From NCBI GenBank assembly GCA_046292385.1, contig JBKBRF010000003.1:74845-138844 (forward strand): DNA of 64,000 nucleotides, written 5' to 3'. The stretch comes from Armatimonadota bacterium (GTDB taxonomy: Bacteria > Armatimonadota > SYMT01). The notes below the pieces were generated by a model. The model had not been told where the DNA came from. It searched no databases and worked only from the letters and a program-made list of their open reading frames with translations. Both the position numbers and the translations under genes were made by a program. This document shows, piece by piece, positions 4,952 through 48,718 of the stretch (position 1 is the stretch's first letter; each line of letters starts with the position of its first letter).

Positions 4952-5065
4952 GCCGGGCACGGAGACCCGGACTCTCCAAACCGCCCCTGCTCGCCAGGAC
5001 ATGTCGGGGTACCGCAGGTCGCCAGCGAGCAGGAGCAGGACCTCCCGCACACGGAAGGTTCGGAC

Positions 5066-5155: not shown

Positions 5156-5157
5156 AC

Positions 5158-10400: not shown

Positions 10401-11673
10401 CGAGGACCAGGGGCTGGAGCCGGAGACGGTCTACTTCTACCGGGTGCGCGCGGTGAACGCGGGTGGGCCCTCGGCCTACACGGATGAGGTCCGCGTGGAG
10501 ACCCTGTCGCCTCCGCCGCCGCCGGCGGCGCCGGAGGGGCTTGCCGCCGCGCCCCAGGGCTTCTTCCAGATCAACCTGCAGTGGCTGGACCGCAGCACCA
10601 ACGAAGAGCAGTTCGAGATCGAGCGGCGCACGGCCGGCGGAGCGTTCGCGCGAGTGGCCACGGTGCCGGCGAACACCACGACCTTCGCCGACACGATGCT
10701 CCAGCCGGGCACCCTCTACTTCTACCGGGTGCGGGCGGTCAATGAGGGCGGAGAGTCGGCCTACTCCAACGTGGCGCAGGCTTCCACTGCCCCGCTGCCC
10801 CCGCCGCCCGCCGCGCCGGCCGGGCTGGATTGCGAGGTGCCTTCCACCTCGCAGGTCCGCCTCACCTGGCAGGACCGCAGCAACAACGAGGAGCGCTTCG
10901 TGATCCAGCGCCGGACCGGCACCGGAGCGTTCCAGCAGGTGGGGCAGGTCGCCGCCAACACCACCAGCTTCACCGACAGCGGGCTGGAGCCGAACACCCG
11001 GTACTTCTACCGGGTGGCGGCGGAGAACGCGGGCGGCACCTCCGCCTTCTCGGAGGTATGCGAGGCGCTGACGCTGCCTGCGGCCGCGACCAACCTGACC
11101 GGCGCCGCGCAGGGTCCGGACCGGATCGCGCTGATCTGGGTCGACAACAACCCCGGCAACGTGGCCTACCGGGTGGAGCGGTCGGAGGACGGCGGTGCCA
11201 CCTTCCGCGTGGTCGGGGAGACCGCGCCGGGAGCGGTGACGTTCGAAGACACCGGGCTCCAGGAGGGGACCACCTACCGCTACCGGGTGCAGGCGGTGAA
11301 CGCCTCCGGCACCTCCGGCTACTCCAACATCGTCTCGATCGCCACCCTGCCGCCGGCCGGCGGGAGCCTGCGGGTGGCCACACGGGTCAACTTCGGTCGC
11401 GTGCGGGTGGGGCGGAGCAAGACGGTTCGGCTGCTGGTGCGCAACGTCAGCCGCAGCGAGAGCCTTTCGATCTCGACGGAGCTGGAGGAGGGACCGTTCT
11501 CCGTGCTGGACGGCGGCACCGCGACGATCCCCCCGAACGGGCGCCACCGGATCACGCTCGTCTTCCGGCCGCAGACCCGCGGTCGCCAGCAGCGGACCCT
11601 CCTGCTCCGGAGCTCCGATCCGTCGCGCGCGGAGACCGCCGTCCGGCTTCGCGGGAACGGCGTAAGACGCTGA
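7492..11673 (+). CDS. Secreted SBBP beta-propeller + 6x fibronectin type III + C-terminal Ig-like (ASH-like) surface protein
   Basis: Signal-like N-terminus, FERNRGQ, LVIDP, repeated YSTYLGG/DAFV units, six W.D.S.NE..F.IER...Y.YRVRAVN repeats, and a VNFGRVRVG tail. Confidence 0.88.
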   Translation: MWISSLAAEAVRRGASRLLCGGLLIAAPLAAAGSAAQTSGAAGAPAPRPSLETPPVAFERNRGQTDPEARFVARGSGHTLYLTPREAVLQLRAGPPRREAPSAAPRPFSKVETATLRFSLAGGARSPRLTGVEPLPGTVRYVRRGEAAPITAETFAGVQYEEVYPGIDLHYYAAARQVEYDFVVAPGADPRRIQWRIEGARSASLERGDLLLRTAAGTLRHTRPVAYQEIAGAPRPIRCDYTLTSSRPGETRVSFRVGEYDRSRPLVIDPVVIFATPFGGTGQDTVNGVAVDRTGASYLTGQTASLDFPTRNPIQAEKSGVFGLFDAFVTKINPTGTSLVYSTYFGGTSDDSGQKIEVDAAGAAYVVGTTTSNDFPVTPRVADRSYNGLEDVFVLKLDPTGTDVEYSTYLGGSRSDVGLGIAVDANGLAHVVGSTESLNFPIGGRSFDRSQNGLSDAFLVRLSADGRTVDLGTFLGGDGFDVARGVALDADGAIYLAGGTDSLNFPTTSGAFDRTRGGIRDAFAAKLSRGGGSLVYSTFVGGSANDEAYDVAVTPAGVACLTGETRSLDFPTTSGGFDRTGNFPTRDAFVACLARNGASLTYGTYLGGVGDDVGTGIDLDPAGRLYVAGFTASVDFPLREPVDVENGGLYDAFAASFAPGATGTASLLYSTYFGGSADDAAFDVAVDENGSAYLAGETFSFDFPRVEPLQSALRGVRDGFLVKLAILPGLSAPRDLTATAVSATEVELNWVDQSAGESGFEIERRTETTGFTRIATTAANVERFRDTGLTPGVRYTYRVRAVGLRATSAYSNEASVETASGPPSAPDQLQAEAVSSTSISLTWRDTSANESGFRIERKTGNGSFTQVATVDANVTSYLDTGLSPGTRYTYRVRAVNAAGSSAFSNEASATTSSAPPPAPDRLAARALSSRRVELTWRDRSTNEESFEVERRLENGTFQRVAVLPPNTTRYEDQGLEPETVYFYRVRAVNAGGPSAYTDEVRVETLSPPPPPAAPEGLAAAPQGFFQINLQWLDRSTNEEQFEIERRTAGGAFARVATVPANTTTFADTMLQPGTLYFYRVRAVNEGGESAYSNVAQASTAPLPPPPAAPAGLDCEVPSTSQVRLTWQDRSNNEERFVIQRRTGTGAFQQVGQVAANTTSFTDSGLEPNTRYFYRVAAENAGGTSAFSEVCEALTLPAAATNLTGAAQGPDRIALIWVDNNPGNVAYRVERSEDGGATFRVVGETAPGAVTFEDTGLQEGTTYRYRVQAVNASGTSGYSNIVSIATLPPAGGSLRVATRVNFGRVRVGRSKTVRLLVRNVSRSESLSISTELEEGPFSVLDGGTATIPPNGRHRITLVFRPQTRGRQQRTLLLRSSDPSRAETAVRLRGNGVRR

Positions 11674-29225: not shown

Positions 29226-31385
29226 ATGTCACCCGCTCCGACCCCCCGTCTGTTTCCGGCGCTCGCCGCCGCGGCGCTCCTGCTTCCGCTCGCGGCCTCC
29301 GCTCGCACCGACCGGGTCACCGGACGGACGCCGGAGCCGGAGCTGCTGGTGCAGGCGCTCGACCGCTCGCTCTCCACCGCGGTGCTCAGCGGCGACGGCC
29401 GCTGGCTGATCACCGGCAGCGGAGACCGGCGCGTGCAGGTCTGGGACGCGCGCACCGGCCTGCTGACGCGCAACCTCCCCACCGGCGGCCCGGTGGCGGA
29501 GGTCGACCTCTCTCCGGATGCTCGCGTGGTCGCCGCGGGTGGACTGGAGGGAGCGGTCCGGCTGTGGGACCGCGAAACCGGCGCGGAGCGGGCCGTGCTG
29601 AAGACCGACCCGCAGGGCACCCTCTCCGTCCGCTTCTCCCCCGCCGGTCCGCACCTGGCGACCGCGGACCACCGCGGCGTGAAGCTGTGGCACGCCGGCA
29701 CCGGCCGCTTCCTCCGGGCGCTGGAGGGCACGGGCGACTTTCTCTCCATCGGCCTCTATCCGGGCGTCGCCTTCTCCCCGGACGGAAAGCTCCTCGCCGC
29801 GCTTACCATGGAGGGCTGGGCGCTCTGGGATCCCGCCATCGGACGCAAGCTGCGCCAGCTCCCGAAGCAGCTGGACCGCGACACGGCGGTCGCCTTCTCG
29901 CGCGACGGCAAGCTGCTCGCGACCGCCCACGTCACCGCCCGGTACACGCTGCCGACTGCCGAGATCGCCTTCTGGAGCACCGCCACCGGAAAGCGGGCCC
30001 GCGCCGTCACCACCGGGCAGGACGCTCTGATTTCCCTCGCCTTCGCGCCGGACGACCGCACCCTGCTGGCCGGCACCCGCTTCTCCCGCGGCCTGCAGGT
30101 GTGGGACGTCCCCTCCGGAAAGCGGCTGCGGACCGTCGGAAGCCTCCCCGGAGCGGTCACCCTCTCCCGCGATGGCCGAACCCTGGCGGCGTGGAGCTCT
30201 GGATTCGGCGCTCCGCCGGAAGTCCGCACCTGGCGCGTCTCCGATTTGCGGACGATGAAGACAATGCCCCTGGCGGCCCTCCCCACGCCGGCGGAGCCGG
30301 TGAGCGTGCTGCAGGCGGCCGGTGCCGGTAGCACGCTCGTGGCGGTGGGCGAGACCGGCCGCGCCTGGCGCTGGGACGGCGAGCGGGCGCGGCTGGAGCG
30401 AGCCGTTTCCCTGCCGGGCGGCGCGTATCAGCGCGTGGTCCTCTCCGCGGACGGCGCCACCGCGGCCGCTGCGTCGGTCGACTGCCTGACGGTCTGGGAT
30501 ACCGCGACGGGGCGGGTGCGTCGGACCTTCCGCTTCACCGGGGAAGACCTCGGCGAGTCGGTCGCCGCCCTCACGCCCGACGGCCGCCGCGTCGCCCTCG
30601 CCGACCGTGCCTACCCGGGCGACCGGAACCTCCTGTACCTGCGCTGGTGGAGCGTGGAGACCGGCGAGCAGCAGGGCGAGCTCCGCTGGCCGGAGACGGT
30701 GCCGCTGGCGCTCGCCGCCTCCCGGGAGGAGCTGATCCTGACCGTCATCAACGTGGAGCGCGAGCGCCGCGAGCTGCGAGGGGTCGACCTCCGCACCGGC
30801 CAGCTCCGGCGTACCCAACCGCTCGAAGGCTTCCCCGGCAGCGCCCTCGGCGTTTCACCGGACGGAGCCACCGCCGCGGTGCCGATGCACGCGATCGTCG
30901 GTGACCACTGGGACTTCCCCGTCGACCTCTGGAGCCGGGAGCGCGACCGCCCCACGGCGCGGCTGCTCGGGTTCCGGCAGGTGCCGGAGAGCGTCACCTT
31001 CTCCACCTCCGGAGCGCGCGTTGCCGCTGGCGGCAGCGAGGGGACGGTGCGCGTCTGGAAGGCCGAAAGTGAGACCCCGCTCACTACCCTTCGCGCGCAC
31101 CGGCGGGAAGTGGCGGCCCTCGCCTTCGTGGGGGAGAATCGCCTCGCCACCGCGGGCGGAGACGGCGAGCTCGCGCTCTGGGAGGTGCCCGGCGGGAAGC
31201 GGCTGGCGACGCTGCTGGTCTTTCCCTCCGGCGAGTGGCTCGCCTACCGGCCGGACCACCGCTACACCGGCTCGCCGGGGATCGAGAAGCGCCTGGCGTG
31301 GAGGGTAGGCCGGCGGGTGGTCTCCGGCAGCAAATCTGGCGTGCGCTTCCGGGTGGAGAGGCTGCTCCCGCCACCGGGCGGTTGA
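29226..31385 (+). CDS. Secreted WD40-repeat protein
   Basis: Signal peptide; repeated FSPDG..LA....D..V.LWD. Confidence 0.85.
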   Translation: MSPAPTPRLFPALAAAALLLPLAASARTDRVTGRTPEPELLVQALDRSLSTAVLSGDGRWLITGSGDRRVQVWDARTGLLTRNLPTGGPVAEVDLSPDARVVAAGGLEGAVRLWDRETGAERAVLKTDPQGTLSVRFSPAGPHLATADHRGVKLWHAGTGRFLRALEGTGDFLSIGLYPGVAFSPDGKLLAALTMEGWALWDPAIGRKLRQLPKQLDRDTAVAFSRDGKLLATAHVTARYTLPTAEIAFWSTATGKRARAVTTGQDALISLAFAPDDRTLLAGTRFSRGLQVWDVPSGKRLRTVGSLPGAVTLSRDGRTLAAWSSGFGAPPEVRTWRVSDLRTMKTMPLAALPTPAEPVSVLQAAGAGSTLVAVGETGRAWRWDGERARLERAVSLPGGAYQRVVLSADGATAAAASVDCLTVWDTATGRVRRTFRFTGEDLGESVAALTPDGRRVALADRAYPGDRNLLYLRWWSVETGEQQGELRWPETVPLALAASREELILTVINVERERRELRGVDLRTGQLRRTQPLEGFPGSALGVSPDGATAAVPMHAIVGDHWDFPVDLWSRERDRPTARLLGFRQVPESVTFSTSGARVAAGGSEGTVRVWKAESETPLTTLRAHRREVAALAFVGENRLATAGGDGELALWEVPGGKRLATLLVFPSGEWLAYRPDHRYTGSPGIEKRLAWRVGRRVVSGSKSGVRFRVERLLPPPGG

Positions 31386-31393
31386 GGTTAGCT

Positions 31394-31684
31394 GCTTCTT
31401 CGCCTCGGGAGCAGCGTCGAGCCCGGGCGCCCGACCCCGCGCCCTTGTCGGCGGAGCCAGCCCTCCCGCGGCGGGTGCCCTCCGCGGCCTTTTCACGCGC
31501 CTTCGGCGCTAGCAGGCCGCTCCGGGAGTGCGTTTCGGTACGCTCTTCCCGCGCCACCGCCGTGATCTACCCTTCGGCTCTGCTCACGGGCTGGCTCCGC
31601 CGCCTTCGAGCGAACTCCCCTGGGCCCAGGGGAGTTCACAGGGGCCGTCCTCCGGTCCAGCCTGCGGCTGCACCTCCCGACGCC
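31394..31684 (-). ncRNA. Putative structured ncRNA or non-autonomous element, copy A
   Basis: Homologous to 47119-47413 in inverted orientation, with compensatory changes in several stems. Confidence 0.6.
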
Positions 31685-31865
31685 AGAGCGAGGCACGACT
31701 GAGTCCCCGGATGGGACCCTCTAATCCGGGGGGACAAACGCCGGGTTGTGTTGCTCCCGCTCCTCCCGCCCGCGGGGGCCCACCCCGGCCGAAGAGGGGT
31801 TCCTCTCTCTGCGTCGAACGAGACGGTACGCCGAAGCCCGCGTCGCCCGGCGTGAGGAGGTCCCG

Positions 31866-33386
31866 ATGCCGCACTCCCGATCCCGTCGCCAGTTCCTCGC
31901 CCGCACCGCCGCGGGAGGCGCGCTCGCCGCCGCGGGGGAGCTCTCGTTCCTCTCCGCGCTGCGGCCGATCGCCGCCGAGGAGACGCAGGTGAAGCCGGGG
32001 CACGTGCGACTCCGGCCGGAGATCGAGCCGCTGGTGCGGCTAGTGGAGGAGAGCCCGCGCGACCGCCTGCTGGAGCGGATGGCGGAGGAGATCCGCCGGG
32101 GCACCTCCTACCGCGAGGTGCTGGCCGCCCTGATGCTGGCGGGGGTGCGGAATATCAAGCCGCGGCCGGTCGGCTTCAAGTTCCACGCCGTGCTGGTGGT
32201 CAACTCCGCGCACCAGGCGAGCCTCGCCTCGGCCGATCGCGACCGCTGGCTGCCGCTCTTCTGGGCGCTCGACTACTTCAAAGGCTCCCAGGCCCGGGAC
32301 GTGCAGGAGGGGGACTGGACGATGTCCGCCCTTCCGGACTCCGCGCTCCCGTCGCCGGACCAGGCGCGCCGCCGCTTCGTGGAGGCGATGGACCGCTGGG
32401 ACGAGGAGGGGGCGGACGCCGCCGTCGCCCAGCTCGCGCGCACCGCGCCGGCCGGAGAAGTGTGGGAGATGTTCTGGCGCTACGGCGCGCGCGACTTCCG
32501 CGACATCGGGCACAAGGCGATCTACGTGGCGAACGCTTGCCGCACGCTCCAGGTGATCGGCCGGGAGCACTCGGAGCCGGTGCTGCGCTCGCTCGCGTTC
32601 GCCCTGCTGATGCGGGGGAACGTCAACCCCGCGGAGGCGGACGAGCCGGCCGACCGCCCCTGGCGCCGCAACCTGGAGCGGGCGAAGGAGCTCGGCCCCG
32701 GCGCGCTGCACGGCACGCGGGTCGACCCCGCCGCCACGCGGGAGCTGCTCTCCGCCCTCCACTCCGGCTCCCCGGACGACGCGGCGGGCCGCGCGGCGGC
32801 GCTGCTCAAGTCCGGCGTCGCTCCCGCCAGCGTGTGGGACGGCGTAATGGCCGGCGCGGGCGAGCTGCTGATGCGGAAGCCGGGGATCGTCGGCATCCAC
32901 TGCGTCACCACCGCCAACGCGCTCCACTACGCCTACAGCGCCGCCGCCTCGGACGAGACCCGCCTGATGATGCTGCTCCAGGGCGCCGCCTTCATGCCGC
33001 TGTTCCGCGAGGCGATGGGCGACCCGGGCGACGTGCGCCTCGACCGCCTGGAGCCGCTGGCGATGCAGAGCAGCGGTCCCGCCGCGGTGGAGGAGGTGCT
33101 GGCGGACGTGAGCCGGAGCCGCATGGACGCCGCCCGGAAGGCGCTCGGCTACCTGGAGGCGGGCGGCTCGGCGGAAGAGCTGCTCGCCGCGGCCCGGCGC
33201 CTGATCTTCCTGAAGGGCACCGACTCGCACGACTACAAGTTCAGCTCCGCCGCGCTGGAAGACTACTACCACGTCAGCCCGGAGTGGCGGAACCGCTTTC
33301 TCGCCTCCGCGATGTTCAACCTGCGCGGCGCCGGCGACCGCGACAACCCGCTCACCGGCCGCATCCGCGCCGCCCTCTCCGGCTGA
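31866..33386 (+). CDS. Tat-exported hypothetical protein
   Basis: SRRQFL Tat motif, GAGGAGG RBS; conserved-looking GFKFHAVL, DIGHKAI and DSHDYK. Confidence 0.8.
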   Translation: MPHSRSRRQFLARTAAGGALAAAGELSFLSALRPIAAEETQVKPGHVRLRPEIEPLVRLVEESPRDRLLERMAEEIRRGTSYREVLAALMLAGVRNIKPRPVGFKFHAVLVVNSAHQASLASADRDRWLPLFWALDYFKGSQARDVQEGDWTMSALPDSALPSPDQARRRFVEAMDRWDEEGADAAVAQLARTAPAGEVWEMFWRYGARDFRDIGHKAIYVANACRTLQVIGREHSEPVLRSLAFALLMRGNVNPAEADEPADRPWRRNLERAKELGPGALHGTRVDPAATRELLSALHSGSPDDAAGRAAALLKSGVAPASVWDGVMAGAGELLMRKPGIVGIHCVTTANALHYAYSAAASDETRLMMLLQGAAFMPLFREAMGDPGDVRLDRLEPLAMQSSGPAAVEEVLADVSRSRMDAARKALGYLEAGGSAEELLAAARRLIFLKGTDSHDYKFSSAALEDYYHVSPEWRNRFLASAMFNLRGAGDRDNPLTGRIRAALSG

Positions 33387-37707: not shown

Positions 37708-38502
37708 GTGTTGAAGAAGCGGCCGGCCAAGCGCTCTCCCCTCAAAGACAAACCCCTCAACCTGCCCGGCGAGTCACTCGAGCGCCAGCAGAGCGATCTT
37801 CTGGAAGACAAGGTCTTCCCGCTCGCGATGGTCGCCCTCTTCGCCATCGTCATGGCGGCGATCGAATGGTGGCGGTGGTATGCGCAGATCCCTCCCAGTC
37901 CGGTGTCGTACACCCTGCTCGCAGCAATCGTCAGCGTGATCTTCTGGTACCGGTGGAGAAAGGTACTTCCGGAGGCGAAAGCGCTCTGGCTGGGCGTCCA
38001 GGGAGAGCGGTTGGTCGGCCAGGAGTTGGAAGAGCTTCGCTCCCACGGCTGCCAGGTGTACCACGACCTCGAAGGCGATGGCTTCAACCTGGATCACGTG
38101 GTGGTCTCCCGGCGCGGCATCGTAGTGATCGACACCAAGACGCTGCGCAAGCCGGCGGACCGGGACGCGACGATTACCTTCGACGGCGAGCGCATCCTGG
38201 TGGACGGCCGCGAGCCGGACCGTGACTACCTGGTGCAGGCCGCCGCGGCGCGACGCTGGCTCCGAAACCTGCTGCGCGAGAGCACGGGGCGCGACTTCCC
38301 GATCCGCAGCGCTATCGTCTTCCCCGGTTGGTTCGTCCAGAACCAGGCGCTCAAACGGAATGCCGAGGTGTGGGTCTTCAACCACAAGGCGCTGCTCAAG
38401 TTCATCCCGAACGAGCCGGAGGTGCTTCTGCCCAGCGACGTCGCGCTGGTCAGCCACCGGATCAAGCTGCACATCCGTGACCAGGCGGCCAAGCGGACCT
38501 GA
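37708..38502 (+). CDS. NERD (nuclease-related) domain membrane protein
   Basis: Two TM segments, then GVQGERLV...HDL...NLDHVVVSRRGIVVIDTK. Confidence 0.85.
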   Translation: MLKKRPAKRSPLKDKPLNLPGESLERQQSDLLEDKVFPLAMVALFAIVMAAIEWWRWYAQIPPSPVSYTLLAAIVSVIFWYRWRKVLPEAKALWLGVQGERLVGQELEELRSHGCQVYHDLEGDGFNLDHVVVSRRGIVVIDTKTLRKPADRDATITFDGERILVDGREPDRDYLVQAAAARRWLRNLLRESTGRDFPIRSAIVFPGWFVQNQALKRNAEVWVFNHKALLKFIPNEPEVLLPSDVALVSHRIKLHIRDQAAKRT

Positions 38503-38521
38503 TCCTGTCGCGCCTCTCTCG

Positions 38522-39511
38522 CTACCGGACGCGAGGGAGCGAAGCCGCCTCGGTGGAGGGCGCCTCTCCCACGCGGGGGAGCGCGGCGGGGTCGGTGGTG
38601 GGCTGTCCCGGCAGCGGGAGCCGCTTGAGCTCTTCGGTCAGCGACTCGATGCGCTCCACCGCGTCGCGGGTCGTCTCCCGAGTTTCGGTGTCCTGCTGGA
38701 GGAGGTCGGCGGAAATGCCGCGCAGCTCCGGCAGCACCTCCCGCAGCTCCACTGCCGGCCTCCGCGCGCCGATCTGGCAGAGGGCCGACGTGATTGCCTG
38801 GATCAGGCGGCCGCGGCTCCGGCGGCGGTGCAGGTAGAGGTAGGCGGCGGCGAGCACCAGGAGGACGAAGGCGGGGCCGAACAGCCGCCCGGGGCCGGTG
38901 GTGGCGATGAGCCCCACCAGCAGCAGCAGCACGCCCGTAAGGAACGCCGGTCCGAAGACGAGCTGCTTCCAGGCCGCGCCGCCCACCAGGCACGCTCGCA
39001 GCGCCTCCCGCAGGGGCGGGATCGCCGTCTCGTCCCCGATCTCCCCCAGCACCTGCGCGGCATTGATGCGGGAGTGCTCTTCCGGGTCCCAGAGCAGGCA
39101 CCGCCGCGGCAGCTCGCCGAGCCACGAGAGGATCGAGCCAGGCTGCTCGTTCCGCGGCGGCGGCTGCAGGAGCGCCGCCACCGCGGCGATCCCCTCCGGT
39201 CCGAAGTGGCGCAGCCCCTGCGCCGCCCGATGCGCCCGGACCGAGTCGCCCCACCGCACTCCCCGCAGCAGCGCCTCCAGCCCGGAAGCGCCCAGCGCTG
39301 CGAAGGCGGCGGTCGCCTCCGCCCGCACGGCTGCGTCTTCATCGGCTAGCGCTTCCCAGAGGGCGTCGGTCGCGTCCTCGCCGCCGAGGCGCAGCTCCCG
39401 CACCACCCGCAGACGCTCGGTGGGGTCGCCTCTCCGCAGGCGGCCGGTGAGGGTGGCTACCTGCATCCGGCGCACCCGGCGCTTCCGGTACTCGGTCTTC
39501 GAACTGGCCAT
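38522..39511 (-). CDS. HEAT-repeat two-TM protein, array paralog 8
   Basis: HEAT units, TM hairpin, tail LPRVGEAPSTEAASLPRVR. Confidence 0.8.
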   Translation of the reverse strand: MASSKTEYRKRRVRRMQVATLTGRLRRGDPTERLRVVRELRLGGEDATDALWEALADEDAAVRAEATAAFAALGASGLEALLRGVRWGDSVRAHRAAQGLRHFGPEGIAAVAALLQPPPRNEQPGSILSWLGELPRRCLLWDPEEHSRINAAQVLGEIGDETAIPPLREALRACLVGGAAWKQLVFGPAFLTGVLLLLVGLIATTGPGRLFGPAFVLLVLAAAYLYLHRRRSRGRLIQAITSALCQIGARRPAVELREVLPELRGISADLLQQDTETRETTRDAVERIESLTEELKRLPLPGQPTTDPAALPRVGEAPSTEAASLPRVR

Positions 39512-39534
39512 CCGCTGGTTCTCCGCGCCGGGCC

Positions 39535-40503
39535 TCAGACCCGCGGCAGGGCGCGGGCGTCCGGCGTGGGCGCCTCGCCGACCCGGGGGAGGGAGGTGCC
39601 CACGCCGGAGACGCAGCCCGGCAGCGGCAGGTTCGACCCCTCCGTGAGCGCCTCGATTCGCTCCGCCGCCGCCCGCGAGGCCTCCCGCGCCTTCGGGTCG
39701 CTCTGAAGGCGGTCGCGCTCGATCGACTGCAGGTCCGGCAGCAGCGTGCGCAGCTCCGGAGCGGGGCAGCGCTCCCCGATCCGCAGCAGGGCGTCCACGA
39801 TCGACTGTCGCGCGAGGCTCTGCCTGCGCTGAGAAGTGAAGTACTGGAACGCAATGTTGATGATACTCATCGCAACCATGGCGAGTGAGCCTTGGAAGCC
39901 CAGCCAAACCTGTCCGAGGAGGGTTAGAGGCATGACCAGCACCGCGACCAGGAGCACCGTCCAGCCGATCACCACCTGGCGGCGTCCTGATCGTCCCAGC
40001 AACTGCCCGCGCAGCACCTGCATGAGCGGCTCCACCGCACGCTGGTCCCCGAATTCTCCCAGGGCTTCCACGGCCGCGTGTCGAGCCGCTGGATCGTGGA
40101 GCGCCCGGCAGAGGAGCGGGACCGACTGCGGCAGGGCCAGCCGCTGGAGCGATTTCACCGCCGCTACGCGCACGCCGTCGTCCGCCTGGCCCAGCGCGTC
40201 TTCCAGCGGCCCCAGCGCCTCCGGCCCGAAGAACCCGAGCGCCCAGGCCGCCTCCCGCCGCTCGCTGGCGTGACGGCTCCGCACCCGCACCGCCAGGCTC
40301 TCGAGTGCGACGGGGCCGATCCGGGCGAGCGACTTTGCCGACGCGGCACGGACCTCTTCCTCGTCGTCGCGCAGCGTCTCCAGCAGGCACGGCACCGCGG
40401 CGCGGCCGAAGTCTCCCAGCGCTCGCGCAGCCGCCTTTCGCTCCGCCTTTGCGCGCGACCGGAGCTGAATCCTCAGGTTCTGAAGCTGATCCGTGGGAGT
40501 CAT
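39535..40503 (-). CDS. HEAT-repeat two-TM protein, array paralog 7
   Basis: LRDDEEEVRAASA; TM hairpin; tail LPRVGEAPTPDARALPRV. Confidence 0.85.
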   Translation of the reverse strand: MTPTDQLQNLRIQLRSRAKAERKAAARALGDFGRAAVPCLLETLRDDEEEVRAASAKSLARIGPVALESLAVRVRSRHASERREAAWALGFFGPEALGPLEDALGQADDGVRVAAVKSLQRLALPQSVPLLCRALHDPAARHAAVEALGEFGDQRAVEPLMQVLRGQLLGRSGRRQVVIGWTVLLVAVLVMPLTLLGQVWLGFQGSLAMVAMSIINIAFQYFTSQRRQSLARQSIVDALLRIGERCPAPELRTLLPDLQSIERDRLQSDPKAREASRAAAERIEALTEGSNLPLPGCVSGVGTSLPRVGEAPTPDARALPRV

Positions 40504-40567
40504 CCGCCGCTCCGAGGCCGCTGCCGGCAGGGCGCCGGTCCGTTACAGTTCGCGCTCCACGCGCCCC

Positions 40568-41314
40568 TCACCTCACCCGCGGCAGCGTGTCCGCCTCCGG
40601 CGTGGGAGCCTCTCCCACGCGCGGGAGGGTGGCCTCGTGCTGCGTCCCGGAGGCCGGCAGCGGGAGGCTTTTCAGGTTGTCGGTAAGCTCCCGAATACGC
40701 CGTGCGGCCTTCTCGGAAACAGGCCGGGTGCTCGGGTCTTGCTGCACCCAGCCGCTCCCGATCACCCGCAGATCCCGAATCACCTGCCGAAGCTCCGGCG
40801 TGGGATGCCGCTCCCCAATCCGCACCAGCGCGTCGATCAACGCGCGCCTTCCCTGCCCCCGTCCACGCCAGTCGAGAACCCTGCCGATCAAAGCCTGTCC
40901 CAGCCCGGTCAGGATGCCGACCAACCAATACTCCTTCAGATCCAACAGCCTATGCGCTATCACGGAGGCGTTAATGATGACGAGCATGGTCGCGAGGCAC
41001 ATCAGCCAGCCAAAGGCCAGGTGCCGCCAGGCGGAGCGGCCCACGAGGCTCGCGCGCAGTGCTTCCTGCAGCGGTCCAATCGCGCGTTCGTCTCCCACCT
41101 CCGCCAGCGCCTCGGCCGCCGCGAACCGGACGCGCGGCTCGCGGTCCCGCAGTGCCCGGCAGAGGGGCGGTACCACTTCCGGCCGCGGCAGACGCCGGAG
41201 CGCCTCCACGGCGGCCAGCCGCGCTCTGGCGCACGGCGATCGGAGCGCCGTCTCCAGCGCCGGCAGGTCCGGAAGCGGTGCAGGCTCGGTGAGCGTGGCC
41301 AGGGGAGAGAGCAC
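40568..41314 (-). CDS. HEAT-repeat two-TM protein, array paralog 6 (short N-terminus)
   Basis: GTG start with no clear RBS; fewer HEAT units; tail LPRVGEAPTPEADTLPRVR. Confidence 0.75.
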   Translation of the reverse strand: MLSPLATLTEPAPLPDLPALETALRSPCARARLAAVEALRRLPRPEVVPPLCRALRDREPRVRFAAAEALAEVGDERAIGPLQEALRASLVGRSAWRHLAFGWLMCLATMLVIINASVIAHRLLDLKEYWLVGILTGLGQALIGRVLDWRGRGQGRRALIDALVRIGERHPTPELRQVIRDLRVIGSGWVQQDPSTRPVSEKAARRIRELTDNLKSLPLPASGTQHEATLPRVGEAPTPEADTLPRVR

Positions 41315-41343
41315 GGGAGTTCTCGCAAGAAGCAGTTGGCCGG

Positions 41344-42441
41344 TTACCGGATTCTGGGCAGCGTCTGCGGGTCCGCGGCGGGCGCCTCTCCCACGCGCGG
41401 GAGAGTGGCTTCACCAGGGGACGCGTCCGCCGGCAGGGGGAGATCTTTCAGGTCTTTGGTAAGCTCTTCGATGCGACGCACGGCCTTGCGGGACGCCAGG
41501 GACATCGCCGTATCCTGCTGAAACCACCGGGACGCCATGAGACGCAAGTCCGGCAGGGCCGCGCGGAGCTCCAGGGAGGACTGACGTTCCCCGATCCGCA
41601 CCAGCGCCTCCATTACCGCGCTAACTACCTCTCCGCGACGGCGGCGGTTGACTACGGAAACCGCGACCGCGTTTCCGATCATAACGAGGAATCCGCCCAG
41701 GTAGTCCAGATCCCACTTGAATGCTGTCAGCAGGAGAAGGAAGAGCGCAGGTCCAGAACCCAGGCCGAACAGAAGGCTAACCCAGAGGTGCCGCCTGGAA
41801 GAGCGTCCTACCAGCCCGTCTCGGAGCAGCTCCTGGAGCGGTCCGACGGCCGCTGCGTCCCCAACGTCCCCCAGCGCCTGGACTGCGGCCAGGCGGACGC
41901 GCGGGTCGCGGTCCTTCAACGCCTCGCAGAGGGGTGGAGCCGTTTCCGGCAGCCCCAGGCTCCGCAGCGCTTCCACGGCAGCGAGGCGGACGCGGTGGTC
42001 CCGGTCCCGCAGCGCGCCGCAGAGGAGCGGAGGCACCTCCGGCAGCCCCAGGCTCGGGAGCGCCTTCGCCGCCGCTACCCGCGTTCGCCAGGACCAGGAG
42101 GTTATCGCCCGCTCCAGCGCCGGCAGCGCGGCCGGGCCGTAGTGACTGAGTGCCCAGGCGGCGCACTCCCGCTCCACCGCGGTGGCCCCATCCAGACGCA
42201 CCTCCAGCGCGGCCAGGGCCGGCGCGCCGATCCTGGCGAGAGAGAGCGCCGCGGCGAGGCGCACCTCCTCGTCGGAGTCAAAGAGGGCGCCGCAGAGGAG
42301 CTCCACCGCCTGCTCGCCGCAGTGGCCCAGCGCTTCCGCCGCGGCGGCCCGCTCCGACACCTCCCGCGACTGGAGCCGCGCTTCCAGGCTCGCCAGCGGG
42401 GCGGGCTCCGTCTCGGGAAAGGTTGCTCTGGTCGAGATCAT
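41344..42441 (-). CDS. HEAT-repeat two-TM protein, array paralog 5 (extra HEAT unit)
   Basis: Duplicated SLGLPE...RVRLAAV unit; tail LPRVGEAPAADPQTLPRIR. Confidence 0.85.
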   Translation of the reverse strand: MISTRATFPETEPAPLASLEARLQSREVSERAAAAEALGHCGEQAVELLCGALFDSDEEVRLAAALSLARIGAPALAALEVRLDGATAVERECAAWALSHYGPAALPALERAITSWSWRTRVAAAKALPSLGLPEVPPLLCGALRDRDHRVRLAAVEALRSLGLPETAPPLCEALKDRDPRVRLAAVQALGDVGDAAAVGPLQELLRDGLVGRSSRRHLWVSLLFGLGSGPALFLLLLTAFKWDLDYLGGFLVMIGNAVAVSVVNRRRRGEVVSAVMEALVRIGERQSSLELRAALPDLRLMASRWFQQDTAMSLASRKAVRRIEELTKDLKDLPLPADASPGEATLPRVGEAPAADPQTLPRIR

Positions 42442-42471
42442 GGCTGCGCTCGAAGGAGCCTCACGCAACTT

Positions 42472-43488
42472 TCACCGGACCCTGGGCAGCGTCTGCGGGT
42501 CCGCCGACGGTGCCTCGCCGACCCGCGGGAGAGACGCCTCGTCTCCCGAGGCAGTGCCGGGGAGGGGGAGAGTTTTCAGGCTCTCGGTGAGGGCCTCGAT
42601 CCGTTGGATGGCCGCCCGGGATACCTGCCGGGTCTCTCTGTTCTGCACGAGTGGGTCCGAGACCATCCGGCGCAGGTCCGGGAGCACCTGCCGCATCTCC
42701 GGGCTCGGTCGTCTTTCGGCGATTTTCACCAGAGCCTCGGTGACGGCCTGCGTCACTCTGCCTCGCTGCTGAATGCGCTCACGACTGCAGTCCACCGCGA
42801 TGCCGAATCCGAACACCACCGCCCACACCGCCCATACCGCAGTCACGACCGCCAGGTCTCCTGTCAGCATGCGCAGGAGCAGGAATCCGCTCAGTGCCAG
42901 CACGAGAAAAACCGTGGGGCTCAACCGCCAGCGCCGGGTGAAGGGTCCGCCCACGAATTCGGACCGGAGCAGGTCGTGGAGCGGGCGCACCGCCGTCTCG
43001 TCGCCGATAGCTCCCAGCGCCTCCACGGCGGCGATCCGCACGCGCGGCTCACGGTCGGTCAATGTCCGGAGGAGATGCGGCACCACCTCCGGCAGATGCA
43101 AGCGTCCGAGCACCTGCACCGCGGCCAGCCGGGTGTCCCAGACGCTCGATTCCAGGGCGCCGGCCAGGACCGGCACTGCCGCCGGTCCGCAGTAAGCCAG
43201 CGCCCACATCGCCCGCTCTCGGGTCTCGGCCGCGTCACTCTCCATCCTCGCCGCCTGCGCGCGGATCGCCGGAGAGCCGATTCTGCCGAGCGACTGCGCC
43301 GCCGCGATCCGCACCGCCTCGTCGGGGTCGTAGAGCGCCGCGCAGAGCGCCTGCACCGCCGGGCCGCCGCGGCTCCCGAGTGCCTCCGCCGCAGCCAGCC
43401 GGTCCGACGCAGCCGCCGACCGCAGCCGGGTCTTGAGCTCCGCCAGGTCGGGGCCGGGATGCGGCGTCGCGGGGTGGAGCTCGCTCAT
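42472..43488 (-). CDS. HEAT-repeat two-TM protein, array paralog 4
   Basis: ATGA overlap with paralog 3; tail LPRVGEAPSADPQTLPRVR. Confidence 0.85.
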   Translation of the reverse strand: MSELHPATPHPGPDLAELKTRLRSAAASDRLAAAEALGSRGGPAVQALCAALYDPDEAVRIAAAQSLGRIGSPAIRAQAARMESDAAETRERAMWALAYCGPAAVPVLAGALESSVWDTRLAAVQVLGRLHLPEVVPHLLRTLTDREPRVRIAAVEALGAIGDETAVRPLHDLLRSEFVGGPFTRRWRLSPTVFLVLALSGFLLLRMLTGDLAVVTAVWAVWAVVFGFGIAVDCSRERIQQRGRVTQAVTEALVKIAERRPSPEMRQVLPDLRRMVSDPLVQNRETRQVSRAAIQRIEALTESLKTLPLPGTASGDEASLPRVGEAPSADPQTLPRVR

Positions 43489-44483
43489 CGGACTCGGGGG
43501 AGGTGGTCGGCGTCCGCGTGGGGCGCGTGACCGACCCGTGGGAGCGAGGCGTCGTCGACGGAGGCAGCGGCGGGGAGCGGGAGGTCCTTCAGGCTTTCAG
43601 TAAGCCCTCCGATCCGGCGGGCGGCCGTGCGAGAAGCCTCCCGCGTTTCTGCGTCCTGCTGGATCGGATCGGCTGCCATCCGGCGCAGGTCGGGGAGCAC
43701 CGCCCGCATTCCGGGACTTGGTCGTCGTTCCGCAATCGCCGAAAGGGCTCCGGTGACGGCTCGCGCCACCGATCCTCGCTCCGTCCGATTCCGTAGATAC
43801 TCCACCAGGACCAAGAGCAGCGCTACGAGACTCAGGATCGATCCCCGATCCTTCTGGAATAGTCCCGGAAGAAGCCCAGCAGCCGTGCCGAAGAGTACCA
43901 GACACAGGGGAAGAGCCAACCACCGACGGCGACCACTCAAGCCACCCACGAAGCCGGACTGTAACACTTCCAGGAGCGGTCGAACTGCCCTCTCGTCGCC
44001 GACCGCACCCAGCGCTTGCGCTACGGCGATCCGAATCCTCGGTTCGTTCTCCTCCAAGAGCCGGCAGAGGTGTGGCGTCACTTCCGGCTGACCGAGAGTT
44101 CCCAGCGTCTTCGCGGCGGCACCGCGGGTATCCCCGTATTTTGCTTCCAGGGCGTCAACCAGGATCGGCACTGCCGCCGGTCCGCAGTAAGCCAGCGCCC
44201 AGACCGCTCGCTCGCGGGTCTCGGAGCTTTCACTTTCCAACCGCGCGGCGAGCGCCCATATCCCCGGAGAGCCGATTCTGCCGAGCGACTGCGCCGCCGC
44301 GATCCGCACCGCCTCGTCGGGGTCGTTGAGCGCCGCGCAGAGCACCTGCACCGCTGGGCCGCCGCAGCTCCCGAGCGCCTCCGCCGCGGCCAGCCGCTCC
44401 GACGCAGCCGCCGACCGCAGCCGGGTCTGGAGTTCCGCCACGTCGGGGCCGGGATGCGGCGTCATAGAGTGAAGCTCGCTCAT
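43485..44483 (-). CDS. HEAT-repeat two-TM protein, array paralog 3
   Basis: N-terminus nearly identical to paralog 4; ATGA overlap with paralog 2. Confidence 0.85.
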   Translation of the reverse strand: MSELHSMTPHPGPDVAELQTRLRSAAASERLAAAEALGSCGGPAVQVLCAALNDPDEAVRIAAAQSLGRIGSPGIWALAARLESESSETRERAVWALAYCGPAAVPILVDALEAKYGDTRGAAAKTLGTLGQPEVTPHLCRLLEENEPRIRIAVAQALGAVGDERAVRPLLEVLQSGFVGGLSGRRRWLALPLCLVLFGTAAGLLPGLFQKDRGSILSLVALLLVLVEYLRNRTERGSVARAVTGALSAIAERRPSPGMRAVLPDLRRMAADPIQQDAETREASRTAARRIGGLTESLKDLPLPAAASVDDASLPRVGHAPHADADHLPRVR

Positions 44484-45493
44484 CGGACTCGGGGGAGGTG
44501 GTCGGCGTCCGAGTGGGGCGCCTGACCGACCCGTGGGAGCGAGGCTTCGTCGACGGAGGTGCCGCCGGGGAGCGGGAGGTCCTTCAGGTTTTCGGTGAGA
44601 GCTTCGATCCGCTCAACCGCCGCGCGAGAGGCTTCACGGGTGCGGGGGTCGTGCTGGAGGCGGTCCTTCGCCACCACCCGCAGGTCCGGCAGCACCCGTC
44701 GCAGCTCGGGAGTCGGCGTCCGCTCGCCGATTTGCACCAGCGCCTTCGTCACCGCGCGAGAGTAGTCGCCGGTCTGCCGGCGCGACGCAAAGTACGAGTG
44801 GATCCGGCTGGTGAAGCCGGCCATGCTGCCGAAGAGGAACCCTCCCGCTCCGGCGAGCTCACTCTCGAAAGCGGCTCCCATGGCGACGCAGAACAGCGCT
44901 CCCCAACCGATCGCGACGAGGAGGCCCAGTCGAAGCTGTCGCTCGGCCGAGCGACCGACGAAGCAGCTCCGCAGCGCCTTGCAGAGCGGTCCGATCGCGC
45001 GCTCATCGCCGATCTCTCCGAGGGTCCAGGCGGCGGTCGACCGGGCGTAGTAGTCCCCGTCGCGCAGCATCTCACACAACAGCCGGGTGGTCTCCGGCCG
45101 CTTCAGCCGGCGGAGTGTTCGGAACGCAGCATTTCGCACTTCGCTGTCGGAGGACCGCAGCGCTTGCACCAGCGGCTTCAGCGCCTCCGAGCCGCAGAAG
45201 CCCAGTGCCCAAGCCGCCTTCCGCGGCTGGAGGAAGCTCCCGCAGTCGAGTAGCTCCGTCAGCGCTTCGATTGCGGGGCCGCCAAGGGTGCCGAGCGCCC
45301 GCGCGGCGGCGAGGCGCACTTGCTCGTCGGGGTGGTTCAGAGCGCGGCAGAGCGGCTCCACGGCACCGGCCTCCGCCAGGTCCGCGACGGCGGCAAGACA
45401 CTGGTCCGGATCGTCCGACCGCAACCGCGCCTCCAGCCGGCGGAGCTCGGCCGGGAGCGCTCTTTCGCAAAGTGTGGCGCCGTTTACGGACAT
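44480..45493 (-). CDS. HEAT-repeat two-TM protein, array paralog 2
   Basis: HEAT units, TM hairpin, tail LPRVGQAPHSDADHLPRVR. Confidence 0.85.
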   Translation of the reverse strand: MSVNGATLCERALPAELRRLEARLRSDDPDQCLAAVADLAEAGAVEPLCRALNHPDEQVRLAAARALGTLGGPAIEALTELLDCGSFLQPRKAAWALGFCGSEALKPLVQALRSSDSEVRNAAFRTLRRLKRPETTRLLCEMLRDGDYYARSTAAWTLGEIGDERAIGPLCKALRSCFVGRSAERQLRLGLLVAIGWGALFCVAMGAAFESELAGAGGFLFGSMAGFTSRIHSYFASRRQTGDYSRAVTKALVQIGERTPTPELRRVLPDLRVVAKDRLQHDPRTREASRAAVERIEALTENLKDLPLPGGTSVDEASLPRVGQAPHSDADHLPRVR

Positions 45494-45522
45494 AACTCTA
45501 CTCTACCGGAACCGTGTCGCTC

Positions 45523-46509
45523 CTACCGGACCCGGGGCAGCGATTGCTTCGCTGGCGCCGGCACGGCGCCCGGGCGGGGAAGCGTGTCGGCGCTGGAGTT
45601 AGGCTCCGCCGGGAGGGGGAGGCTGGTGAACGGGTCGGTCAACTCCTGGATCCGGCGGGCCGCTTCTTGCAAAGCCTCACGGGTAGCGGGCTCCTGCTGG
45701 AGACGGTCCGCGGCGATAAGCCGCAGGTCTCGCAGCACGCCCCGCAGCTCCGGACTGGGTCGGCGCTCTCCGATCCGCACCAGCGCTTCCGCCACGGCGC
45801 GAGAGAGCTCTCCCTGCGCTCGCCGCCGGTTGAAGTAGGCGTGGAACGCCCAGCCAATCCATATCGCGGGAAGGAGCCCGCCGATCCGGGCCACGATGGT
45901 GCTGTAGATAAGACCGGAGAGCACCGCCGCGGCCAGGATCAGCATGAGGCCGCCGGTCACCGCCTGCAGGACGACCGACCCACCGACGAGCGACTCGCGC
46001 AGGGCGCTGCAGAGCGGCTGAACGGCGCGCTCATCGCCGATCTCTCCGAGAGCGCGCACCACCGCCACGCGCACTCGCCAGTCGTGGTCCCGCAGCATCC
46101 GGATGAGCACCGGAACGCACTCCGGCAGCGCCAGCCGCTGCAGCGCCTCCGCTACCGTCCGACGGAGGGTGGGGTCGAGAGAGCTCCTCGCCCACTCCAG
46201 AGCTTCCACAGCGGCGGGACCGCAGAAGCCGAGCGCCCATGCCGCGCTGCAGCTCACGCTGCTCACCCCGGTCTTCAAGCGCCAGGTCAGCCGTCGGATT
46301 GCGGGGAGGCCCAGCTGCGCCAGCGCGTGAGCGACGGCGGTGCGGACCCCCTCGTCCTCGTCGCTCAGCGCACGGCAGAGCGGGTCGATCCCGCGCTCCC
46401 CACACGCGGCGAGCGCCTCCGCCGCGGCCCGCCGCTCGGCCGGATCTTCCGAGTCGAGGCGTGCCGTGTAGAGGTGGACTTCGTTCCAGCTCGGGGGAGT
46501 GGGTGCCAT
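45523..46509 (-). CDS. HEAT-repeat two-TM protein, array paralog 1
   Basis: HEAT units, TM hairpin, tail LPRPGAVPAPAKQSLPRVR. Confidence 0.85.
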   Translation of the reverse strand: MAPTPPSWNEVHLYTARLDSEDPAERRAAAEALAACGERGIDPLCRALSDEDEGVRTAVAHALAQLGLPAIRRLTWRLKTGVSSVSCSAAWALGFCGPAAVEALEWARSSLDPTLRRTVAEALQRLALPECVPVLIRMLRDHDWRVRVAVVRALGEIGDERAVQPLCSALRESLVGGSVVLQAVTGGLMLILAAAVLSGLIYSTIVARIGGLLPAIWIGWAFHAYFNRRRAQGELSRAVAEALVRIGERRPSPELRGVLRDLRLIAADRLQQEPATREALQEAARRIQELTDPFTSLPLPAEPNSSADTLPRPGAVPAPAKQSLPRVR

Positions 46510-46572
46510 GGTCGGTGACGGGCCGTCCGGTCTCCGTTACTGAAACGGCGAAATCCCTCCGTCGTTGCGGGG

Positions 46573-46986
46573 TCAGTCTCCCGCGCTCTCCGCCAGCAGC
46601 CGCTCCACTTCCGCCGGGAGGCTGGGCCGGCCGCGGTCGTTGATTCCGGTCCCGATCACGCGCCCCCGCAGGATCGGCTTGCCGTCCGGCAGCCGGAAGA
46701 TCTCCTGCGTGAAGCCGAAGCGGAGGCGGGAGACGCGGTCGACGCTGACCCGCACCTCGAAGCGGTCCCCGCTGCGGAGCGGGTAGAGGTAGTCGAGCTC
46801 GATCCGTGCCACCACCAGGTTCACGCCGTCCCGGGAGAGCTGCGCGAAATCGATCCCGCGCGACTTCAGGAAGAGGTGGCGGGTATGCTCCAGGTAGTTC
46901 TGGTAGACGGCGTTGTTGACGATGCCCTGGAGGTCGCACTCGTAATCGCGCACCTCCAGCTCCAGCCGGTAAAGAGAGTTGTCCAT
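46573..46986 (-). CDS. Acyl-CoA thioesterase (4HBT/YbgC-like)
   Basis: EVRDYECDLQGIVNNAVYQNYLEHTR. Confidence 0.9.
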   Translation of the reverse strand: MDNSLYRLELEVRDYECDLQGIVNNAVYQNYLEHTRHLFLKSRGIDFAQLSRDGVNLVVARIELDYLYPLRSGDRFEVRVSVDRVSRLRFGFTQEIFRLPDGKPILRGRVIGTGINDRGRPSLPAEVERLLAESAGD

Positions 46987-47118
46987 GCGTTCGTTGCAAG
47001 CACCCGGGTCAAGGAAGGGTGCCCTCGAGAGGGTTGTTCGCCAGCCGTGCGCCAAATCCCGCCGCGAATCGCGATGAAATGGCATGGCCAGTGCTTCGGA
47101 TCCGCACCAGAAACCCGC

Positions 47119-47413
47119 GGCGTCCGCAGGTGCAGCCGTTAGGCTGCGCCGGAGGATGCCACCTGTGACCACCCCTTGGGAAAGGGGTGGTTGCTCGAAG
47201 GGCCGGGGGGCAGCCCGTGAACCCTGCCTCTGGCCCAGTAGAGCGCAGTGGCGCGGGTACGGCAAACCGGAAGGCACGCCTGGAGCGGCCTGCTAGCGGA
47301 GCGAAGCGGAGTGTGAAAAGGCCGCGGAGGGCCTTCGTCGCGGGAGGGCTGCCCCCCGGCACAAGGGCACGGGGTCGGACCTCCGACACCAACGCTGGTC
47401 CTCGGCAAGAGGC
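47119..47413 (+). ncRNA. Putative structured ncRNA or non-autonomous element, copy B
   Basis: Homologous to 31394-31684; 15-bp long-range stem 47202-47216/47346-47360; hairpin with a GGGA tetraloop at 47168-47191. Confidence 0.6.
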
Positions 47414-47611
47414 AGAATCCTGCGGCACACGGCTGCTCATCCCGAGGCCCTGCTGGCGCGGGGCGCGAAAGCAAGCCTCCGTACTGGGGGCAAGCATTCG
47501 CACTCCAGGGACCAGACCGAGGCGTCGTCTGGTATACCCTTGCCCGGATTGGTTCTCGACAGAGATGCTGTAGGCCAGCGATAGCTGTCGAAGAGAAGCA
47601 CATCGCACCCG

Positions 47612-48718
47612 ATGACCCACTTCCACCTCGCCTACTACATCAGCAGTCACGGCTACGGTCACGCCCGGCGCTCCACCCTGGTCGTCCAGGCGCTCCTCCG
47701 GCGCTTTCCGGAGATCCGGATCTCCCTCCGCACCACGGCGCCCGCGGCGCTTTTCCAGGAGCTGCTCGGACCTCGCGTGGAGCGGGCGGAGGTGGCTCTC
47801 GATCCGGGCGCGGTGGAGCGGAGTCCGCTGGCAATTGACCCGGCGGCGACTCTCTCCGCGGTCCGCCGGGCGCTGGCGGAGCGGGGGACCGTGGTCGCGG
47901 CGGAGGCGGCGGCGCTGCGGGAGTCGGGCTGCCGGCTGGTAGTAGCCGACATCCCGTTCCTGGCGGGTGAGATCGCCGCGCGGGCGGGGGTGCCGTGCGT
48001 GGGGATCAGCAACTTCACGTGGGACTGGATCTTCGAGCCGCTCTTCGCCGGGCTGCCGGGCGGCACGGAGGCGCTGGCGCAGGTGCGGCGCGGCTACGGA
48101 GAGTTCGAGGCGCTGCTGCGGCTGCCGTTCGGCGGCGTCTCCCCGGCCGTGCGGCGGGTCGTCCCGGTGCCGCTCCTCGGGCGGAGGTCGGCGGCCGACC
48201 CGCGGGCGGTGCTGGCGCGGATCGGGGTCGCGGCGGGCGACGACCGTTCCCGCGTGCTCCTGGGGCAGCGCGGCGGGCTTCCGCCGGAGGTGCTGCGCCG
48301 GGCGGCGCAGGGCGCGCCGGAGCTGCTCTTCCTGGCGCCGGGGGCGGAGGGGGCGCCGCTCCCGAACGTGCTTCCGCTGCCTCCCGCCGTCGGCAGTAGC
48401 TTCAGCGACCTCCTGGCGGTGAGCGACATCGTGCTGGCCAAGCCGGGCTGGGGCATCCTGGCAGACTGTATTGCCGCGGAGACGGCGCTGCTCTGGCCGC
48501 CCCGGGAGGGATTCCGCGAGGACGCGGTCGCCCTGGCGGAAGCGCGGCCGTACCTCCGGCAGCGCCGCCTGCCGCCGGAGCGGCTCCACTCCGGCGACTG
48601 GGCCGCCGACCTCCGCGCGCTCCTGCAAGAGCCGCCCCCGGAAGCGCGTCCCCGCCTGGACGGTGCGGAGGTCAGCGCGGGGCTGTTGGCGGAGTGGCTG
48701 GAAGCGGTGGGGGATTGA
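47612..48718 (+). CDS. GT-B glycosyltransferase-like protein (resembles the L-arabinokinase N-terminal domain)
   Basis: AYYISSHGYGHARRS, VVADIP, SNFTWDWI and KPGWG. Confidence 0.75.
   Translation: MTHFHLAYYISSHGYGHARRSTLVVQALLRRFPEIRISLRTTAPAALFQELLGPRVERAEVALDPGAVERSPLAIDPAATLSAVRRALAERGTVVAAEAAALRESGCRLVVADIPFLAGEIAARAGVPCVGISNFTWDWIFEPLFAGLPGGTEALAQVRRGYGEFEALLRLPFGGVSPAVRRVVPVPLLGRRSAADPRAVLARIGVAAGDDRSRVLLGQRGGLPPEVLRRAAQGAPELLFLAPGAEGAPLPNVLPLPPAVGSSFSDLLAVSDIVLAKPGWGILADCIAAETALLWPPREGFREDAVALAEARPYLRQRRLPPERLHSGDWAADLRALLQEPPPEARPRLDGAEVSAGLLAEWLEAVGD

Follow-up and report, generated by a model that had tools for sequence, protein, structure and literature searches.

A gene-less, dispersed repeat family with a covariation-supported multi-helix fold in an uncultured Armatimonadota bacterium

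For a decade HEARO RNAs, abundant, mobile and structured, were a puzzle, until their role as guides for IscB nucleases emerged. Other large structured RNAs, such as raiA, OLE, ROOL and GOLLD, are single-copy or few-copy genes, and the Y1 (HUH) transposases recognise folded single strands of DNA during replication. Gene-less PATE-like derivatives of IS200/IS605 elements carry omega-RNA (PMC10055086). They are described as multicopy units with sharp ends, lacking inverted repeats and target duplications, that carry a structured RNA, a few hundred bases in length, as cargo and depend on proteins encoded elsewhere. REP/REPIN sequences and their RAYT proteins are described (PMC3337134, PMC3116915) as hundreds of intergenic copies that occur as inverted doublets with a spacer and as singlets, and that persist for a long time in one lineage in genomes with Y1-type genes.

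Here we describe a gene-less repeat unit of ∼300 nt that is dispersed in ∼134–141 copies through the genome of an uncultured Armatimonadota bacterium (7.04 Mb in 91 contigs, 68.9% G+C, 98.45% complete; label G000). It was noticed as two copies, A and B, in one 64,000-nucleotide stretch of a single contig (C3), referred to here as the window. The unit shares with PATEs, and with REP/REPIN sequences, the respective likenesses listed above, of which the RNA cargo and the need for proteins encoded elsewhere are proposed. With the orphan RNAs raiA, OLE, ROOL and GOLLD, discovered through comparative genomics (PMC12286853), it shares its size, a covariation-supported fold and an unsettled biochemical role, but it differs from them in being present in ∼140 copies with mobile-element features. 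A literature search on noncoding RNAs or repeats of Armatimonadota/Armatimonadetes found no description of the family.

Copies A and B belong to a large dispersed family

When copy B was used as a BLAST query, 62 matches were obtained in the host genome. Two rounds of nhmmer gave 151 family hits, of which 134 span at least 200 and 132 at least 220 model positions, and a covariance model of the 216-position core of the repeat gave at least 141 matches, a number that may be a floor because only 150 candidates were scored. The initial annotation had anticipated many more copies genome-wide and proposed that they be counted; the 134 near-full-length copies and 141 covariance-model matches bear this out. 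Correlated alignment columns split 132 copies into type I (69 copies) and type II (60 copies), which are ∼65% identical to each other, with three copies untyped. The median identity between nearest neighbours among the copies is 0.82 and the highest is 0.96, so no two copies in the host genome exceed 96%, although identical repeats may have been merged in the draft assembly and six copies are located at contig ends.

BLAST searches of related genomes returned one weak hit, and the covariance model was used in place of this too insensitive method. By that model the family is present in three of the seven genomes of the host's taxonomic family, with 141 matches in the host, 15 in G005 and eight in G006; the other four (G001–G004) are element-free, as are all of the 144 other Armatimonadota genomes sampled. 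Three of four pattern hits in metagenomes are true family members and the fourth (L073) fails the covariance model. The two pattern hits from outside the phylum, one in a Ruminiclostridium MAG and the other in an Alphaproteobacteria MAG, were rejected because they fail it as well.

Copy B is a solitary type I copy on the plus strand. It was originally delimited as 47119–47413, which is nearly right, but a conserved 5′ motif (CCAGAAACC) and the terminal hairpin extend the whole unit, comprising that motif, helices P1–P7 and two 3′ hairpins, to ∼47107–47418. The corresponding nhmmer hit (C3:121962–122245, window 47118–47401) covers model positions 4–288. Copy A, also a solitary type I copy, occupies ∼31386–31696 on the minus strand (nhmmer hit C3:106531–106253). 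A repeat finder paired 31408–31501 with 47308–47401 (94 nt, 77%) and 31507–31560 with 47245–47298 (54 nt, 81%) on opposite strands, and pairwise alignment of the two copies gave ∼290 nt of bounded homology between unrelated flanks. Together with the family hits, this establishes copy B as a second copy of the element seen in copy A, as had been claimed.

Copy B lies between divergent genes, one encoding a 137-residue 4HBT/YbgC-like thioesterase (46573–46986, minus strand) and the other a protein of 368 residues (47612–48718, plus strand) that starts 194 nt 3′ of the copy. The divergent arrangement and the thioesterase were correctly annotated, but the second product, which had been labelled a glycosyltransferase, has no sequence match in Pfam, NCBIfam or PDB to support that name. 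Copy A is convergent with a WD40-repeat gene (29226–31385, plus strand), its 3′ end falling within ∼5 nt of the stop codon of that gene, and is divergent from a gene with a twin-arginine signal (31866–33386, plus strand). Directly upstream of copy A, on the minus strand at 31705–31745, there is a short hairpin motif, GTCCCC...GGGGACTCAG, that occurs 30 times genome-wide and at some loci is part of a longer repeat of ∼55 nt. Three of these occurrences precede a type I copy by no more than 100 nt, and the motif was rejected as an insertion target because it precedes only three of the 134 copies. Other repeats are also present. Window positions 38500–46510 hold a tandem run of ∼8 paralogous minus-strand genes of ∼330 codons each with a period of ∼1 kb, the last of which (45523–46509) encodes a HEAT-repeat protein, and 9700–11330 contains five to six tandem copies of a 279–285-nt unit with 62–73% identity, which probably reflects a domain that is repeated within one large gene. 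Elsewhere in the genome, three stretches of contig C8 (95934–96130, 99734–99880 and 100634–100780) each have from ∼50 to more than 100 BLAST matches and may represent other repeat families or common domains.

The genes next to the element are unrelated and its orientation relative to them is random. Downstream genes are co-oriented with 66 and opposed to 68 of the 134 copies, and solo copies in tandem spacers are sense in 22 cases and antisense in 22. The spacers that hold elements are tandem (53), convergent (25) or divergent (23), as expected from spacer length (p=0.49), and a crude ORF call places five of the 134 copies within a reading frame. Diversity is high among the 300 neighbouring genes: no similarity cluster exceeds 11 members, those of the largest one being tentatively Gfo/Idh/MocA-like oxidoreductases, and no neighbour family common to the three carrier genomes was found. 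Hence, the element is not a leader of particular genes, in agreement with the initial annotation, which had argued from the flanks of two copies for a dispersed element and against a cis-regulatory leader.

The fold and its strand

A self-consistent structure was built over 132 copies, and is given here in the plus-strand coordinates of copy B. Its conserved core of ∼215 nt comprises helices P2–P7. Two long-range helices, P3 (47192–96/47365–69) and P4 (47200–15/47347–62), close a central multi-branch domain (47192–47369). P3, within which alignment columns 88–90 pair (column 89 with 264), is 98.5% paired and its pair 88/265 covaries, while P4 is 92% paired with covariation at nine of its 16 pairs. 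P2 is a hairpin of 10 bp at 47168–47191, 96% paired, in which six of ten pairs covary. P5 (47254–47282, with strands 47254–58 and 47278–82) is the CGGGT/GCCTG helix that had been contrasted with CGGGA/TCCCG in copy A, a difference that we confirm. It is 85% paired overall and is weaker or shifted in type II; in type I copies four G-C pairs are kept in 91–100% and the fifth pair in 78% of copies, and position 154/174 is A-U versus C-G between subfamilies. P6 (47285–91/47319–25) encloses P7 (47296–302/47306–12); these helices are 97% and 99% paired with covariation at five of 11 pairs, and in their region (47285–47325) the segments GCUARCG and GUGAAA are nearly invariant. So are two purine motifs at 47324–47349, GCGGAGGGCC and CGCGGGAGGGC, which are present in the G005 copy too, and the near-invariant unpaired segments of the fold include two GGAGGG motifs.

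Outside the core, P1 (47119–47160) is a hairpin with purine-rich internal loops between an outer (47119–25/47154–60) and an inner helix (47130–37/47142–49). It is the least conserved helix (74% and 67% of cells paired, with at least two Watson-Crick types at nine of 15 pairs) and is absent or replaced in many 5′-variant copies. At the other end, hairpins at 47374–87 and 47395–415 complete the unit, and homology between copies stops just beyond them. No T-run terminator follows the 3′ hairpins of copy B.

The multi-helix fold of the family is supported by covariation. Across the 132 copies, the column pairs with the highest mutual information are almost all Watson-Crick exchanges, for example 67/84 (A-U in 81, C-G in 26 and G-C in 17 copies), 88/265, and 101/253 to 108/246. 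The structure was tested on a MAFFT alignment, made without reference to any structure, that combined 41 copies with one from another genus. The 42 predicted pairs are formed in 97.3% of the cells of this alignment and 16 of them have changed on both sides. None of 500 shuffled controls matched the observed values in any of five measures, and sliding the partners by 1–3 columns decreased pairing to 34–53%.

Structural constraint also acts in individual lineages. When changes private to one copy were scored relative to its three nearest relatives, 87 pair changes were obtained, comprising 28 double changes that restore a Watson-Crick pair, 25 changes to G.U, 11 to A.C and 23 to other mismatches. 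Chance would produce ∼6 double hits of whatever kind, compared with the 28 restoring ones observed (P∼4e-11), and paired columns changed at a rate of 2.4% versus 4.3% for unpaired columns (p=2e-9). Some of the private double changes could have arisen by gene conversion between copies.

Plus had been proposed as the functional strand of copy B and minus as that of copy A. Over all helices of the 132 copies, G.U cells outnumber A.C cells by 469 to 183, an asymmetry that is confined to P3 and P4 (302 versus 12). The counts are neutral in P2 (23/17), P6 (12/13) and P7 (2/1) and reversed in P5 (9/74), owing to an A.C at one position in type II, where this helix is probably shifted or unformed. Private changes lead from G-C to G.U 23 times versus 11 times from G-C to A.C, and the unpaired columns are biased in the opposite direction, with 37 C>T versus 59 G>A changes (Fisher p=0.005). 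The predicted folding energy of copy B is −176.3 kcal/mol on the plus strand (z −4.6) and −162.6 on the minus strand (z −3.7), a difference of 13.7 in favour of plus. The strand assignment therefore stands, with the private changes as independent support. The argument from a GNRA tetraloop, by which it had been reached in part, does not generalise across the family: the GGGA loop reported for the 47168–47191 hairpin is present in copy B but in no other of the 114 P2 hairpins extracted.

Searches for known RNAs and for signs of transcription gave the following. With Rfam 15 at gathering thresholds no match was obtained in the whole window, and a permissive search of both copies, omega-RNA models included, gave nothing credible (best scores ≤20 bits versus gathering thresholds of 37–92). 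No tRNA or tmRNA was found, nor was any sigma-70-type promoter at copies A and B, and the only terminator-like site (47601–47614, minus strand) lies outside the element. In metatranscriptome run X17, two short contigs of low depth overlap the core, each partly on the locus, a weak hint of RNA that may reflect DNA carry-over; stretches of the locus not covered by these RNA contigs are no evidence of silence.

Pairing, ends and presence or absence at two loci

In the host genome, 27 head-to-head pairs of copies are present. In 25 of these a type I copy faces a type II copy and the remaining two contain an untyped member, while tandem or tail-to-tail pairs were not found. The solo copies number 43 of type I and 34 of type II. 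Head-to-head pairs are present in G005 too, and in G006 (L066, C47 3729–4933; L067, C236 4060–6958) the copies form same-strand runs of three that are co-oriented with neighbouring genes, unlike the pairs of the other two genomes. Identity between the arms is 0.646 within pairs and 0.645 between pairs (687 of 2,000 permutations as high). Since the arms do not co-evolve, a pair represents two independent modules, and its interpretation as one long hairpin was rejected. The pairs thereby differ from REPINs, in which two short inverted REP units form one hairpin: the 27 pairs have arms of ∼290 nt, of two types, each with an internal multi-helix fold in place of a short palindrome, and no RAYT gene is flanked by these units. 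Obligate head-to-head pairs of two RNA types are likewise not described for PATEs (PMC10055086).

Approximately 13–18 of the pairs form an 850-nt composite unit with sharp, non-inverted termini that both contain ACAG. The sequence upstream of type II solo copies is often the reverse complement of the far end of the composite, and thus the family is modular. Type I solo copies have ACC at positions −5 to −3. This and ACAG are candidates for a short target motif beside the left end, as in IS200/IS605 elements, there being no clean empty site by which the junction would be defined. No target-site duplication was found (at k=6, 12 of 39 observed versus 11.6 expected with shuffled partners) and there are no terminal inverted repeats at the ends of either the element or the composite, for which reasons a MITE was rejected.

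Two loci are found both with and without the element. At the locus of copy B, a 594-nt DNA contig from run X2 that is ∼88% identical to the window joins position 46986 to 47627. It matches 46674–46986 with 39 differences and 47627–47802 with 28 differences, 102 other letters taking the place of 640, whereas contigs in runs X2, X3 and X5 that are 98% identical to the window contain the element. At the second locus, the PfkB and NIF3 genes of G005 flank a pair in a spacer of 1,137 nt, and their best homologues in the host genome (66% and 71% identity) are 152 nt apart with no element between them. Empty sites at orthologous loci had been proposed as a means of defining boundaries and target duplications; two such sites do exist, but both are imprecise, leaving the ends undefined. 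The sharp ends together with the two empty sites indicate insertion or loss at the DNA level. Against mobility speak the missing target-site duplications and inverted repeats and the identity of at most 96% between any two copies.

G005 also contains a type I-E CRISPR-Cas locus (L064, C3:826000–841000, positions 4540–10900) with an array of ∼46 repeats and four copies of the element. Two of these are at the array trailer, bracketed by degenerate repeats, and two are between cas6e and cas1, where they adjoin a stray CRISPR-repeat fragment.

Candidate partners and the nature of the element

The proteins that serve related elements were sought in the carrier genomes. TnpB (PF07282, PF01385) gave no match in G000, G005 or G006, with controls matched in eight of 14 genomes. 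For IscB (NF040563) only the HNH part was matched in the carriers, at no more than 57.5 bits versus a cut-off of 175; in the RRXRR search the control was silent. A reverse transcriptase (PF00078) was not found in the 98.45% complete host genome, and a SINE-like retroelement was rejected for this reason. CsrA (PF02599) was found in none of the seven genomes of the taxonomic family (controls matched in three), and an RNA that sequesters CsrA/RsmA was rejected. There are two copies of IS110 in the host genome. Y1_Tnp matches number five in the host genome, two of them strong, and Y1 genes are present in all three carriers and in six of the seven genomes of the family, including the element-free G002 with four matches. 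None of the host Y1 genes is adjacent to an element, and a single copy lies within 15 kb of one, at a distance of 5 kb from the gene on contig C51. That gene (C51:25843–26414) encodes a RAYT-like Y1 protein of 145 residues and is flanked by 47-nt inverted repeats, whose 29-nt core is found unchanged on at least five other contigs and forms a separate REP-like family. The family therefore differs from PATEs and HEARO in lacking TnpB and IscB in its three carriers and any omega-RNA match in Rfam, and in having unlinked Y1 genes; no Y1 TnpA was found whose own element shares ends with the repeat, the repeats of the C51 gene being different. Thus, defining features of both PATE/omega-RNA and REPIN systems were looked for and are lacking in this family; what it does have in common with PATEs is the gene-less unit with defined ends and neither terminal inverted repeats nor target-site duplication.

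We propose, with a probability of roughly 0.6, that this lineage-restricted gene-less family consists of non-autonomous mobile DNA elements, each carrying as cargo a structured RNA under selection that acts with a trans-encoded factor. Machinery encoded elsewhere would drive intergenic insertion and loss of the element, the RNA would work with a trans-encoded factor of an unrecognised kind, and the fold would be under selection because the element needs it to persist or spread. A head-to-head pair of types I and II may be the complete unit, in which case the solo copies would be half units. Transcription of the element, folding as RNA as opposed to single-stranded DNA, and a protein partner are inferred. 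A more specific proposal, which we regard as doubtful, is that the type I and II unit provides two cognate RNAs for a protein of an unrecognised kind, with no relationship to TnpB, IscB, IS110 recombinases or reverse transcriptases, and that RNA thereby guides or scaffolds the mobility or maintenance of the element, or alternatively that the RNA is catalytic in its own propagation.

The fold could instead act as single-stranded DNA, as an oversized substrate of a Y1 (HUH) enzyme that resembles REP/REPIN sequences or IS200/IS605 ends and needs no RNA function. The Y1 genes of all three carriers, among them the five matches in the host, would suit this explanation, as would the sharp ends without inverted repeats or duplications, the ACAG at both composite termini and the CRISPR-repeat hairpins that adjoin copies in G005; strand-specific pairing is compatible with a single active DNA strand, and the orientation of solo copies is weakly correlated with local GC skew (p=0.049). 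The known HUH substrates are, to our knowledge, short hairpins, however, and a fold of seven helices, closed over a long range and with unpaired purine segments that hardly vary, is difficult to reconcile with them. Furthermore, the sole clearly RAYT-like gene has its own unrelated repeats of 29–47 nt, four of the five Y1 genes have no element within 15 kb, G002 has Y1 genes without the element, and the arms of the pairs do not co-evolve, so that we consider a DNA substrate of this kind a tentative and rather improbable explanation. Alternatively, the copies could constitute a multigene family of independently transcribed, trans-acting host small RNAs that spread by ordinary duplication and not by transposition. 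Conservation of the structure across genera at the low copy numbers of G005 and G006 and constraint in individual lineages are in keeping with this, divergent type I and II pairs could share a bidirectional promoter region, and the core is present in contigs of an RNA library. An origin by ordinary duplication is nonetheless unlikely given the sharp ends of the ∼140 copies, the existence of modular variants and composite units, presence or absence at syntenic loci, insertions within a CRISPR-Cas locus, the lack of a promoter or terminator consensus, and four of seven genomes in the taxonomic family without the element.

Two further explanations are much weaker. As a cis-regulatory leader or riboswitch the element would belong with a downstream gene, as the co-oriented gene 194 nt from copy B and the co-orientation of all six copies at the examined G006 loci with their neighbours might suggest, but copy A points towards the 3′ end of the gene convergent with it, and the even division of orientations (66/68 overall, 22/22 for solos in tandem spacers) beside diverse neighbours makes this very improbable. 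The element is non-coding. Long open frames do cross it, as would be expected of the remnants of a decayed coding duplication, but they number 84 compared with 81 in shuffled sequence, only 451 of 3,501 alignment gaps have a length divisible by three, no periodicity of three bases is seen in the variability and changes in the helices are compensatory. Such remnants, which the initial annotation had named together with a total of only two copies as an outcome that would overturn its view, were rejected and have a negligible probability in a non-coding family of ∼134–141 members.

The mobile structured-RNA element proposed here has the outward signs once presented by HEARO, namely high copy number, an elaborate fold under selection and the behaviour of a mobile element, but it lacks every known partner and adds the obligate pairing of two RNA types. 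The ∼140 natural variants of a single fold are ideal material for structure determination. If the family acts as single-stranded DNA, no known HUH-type substrate would come close to it in complexity, and if paired type I and II copies do provide two cognate RNAs, they would form a new class parallel to OMEGA systems. Should the element prove to be transcribed and its RNA bound by a protein, a new mechanism by which mobile elements depend on RNA could come into view.
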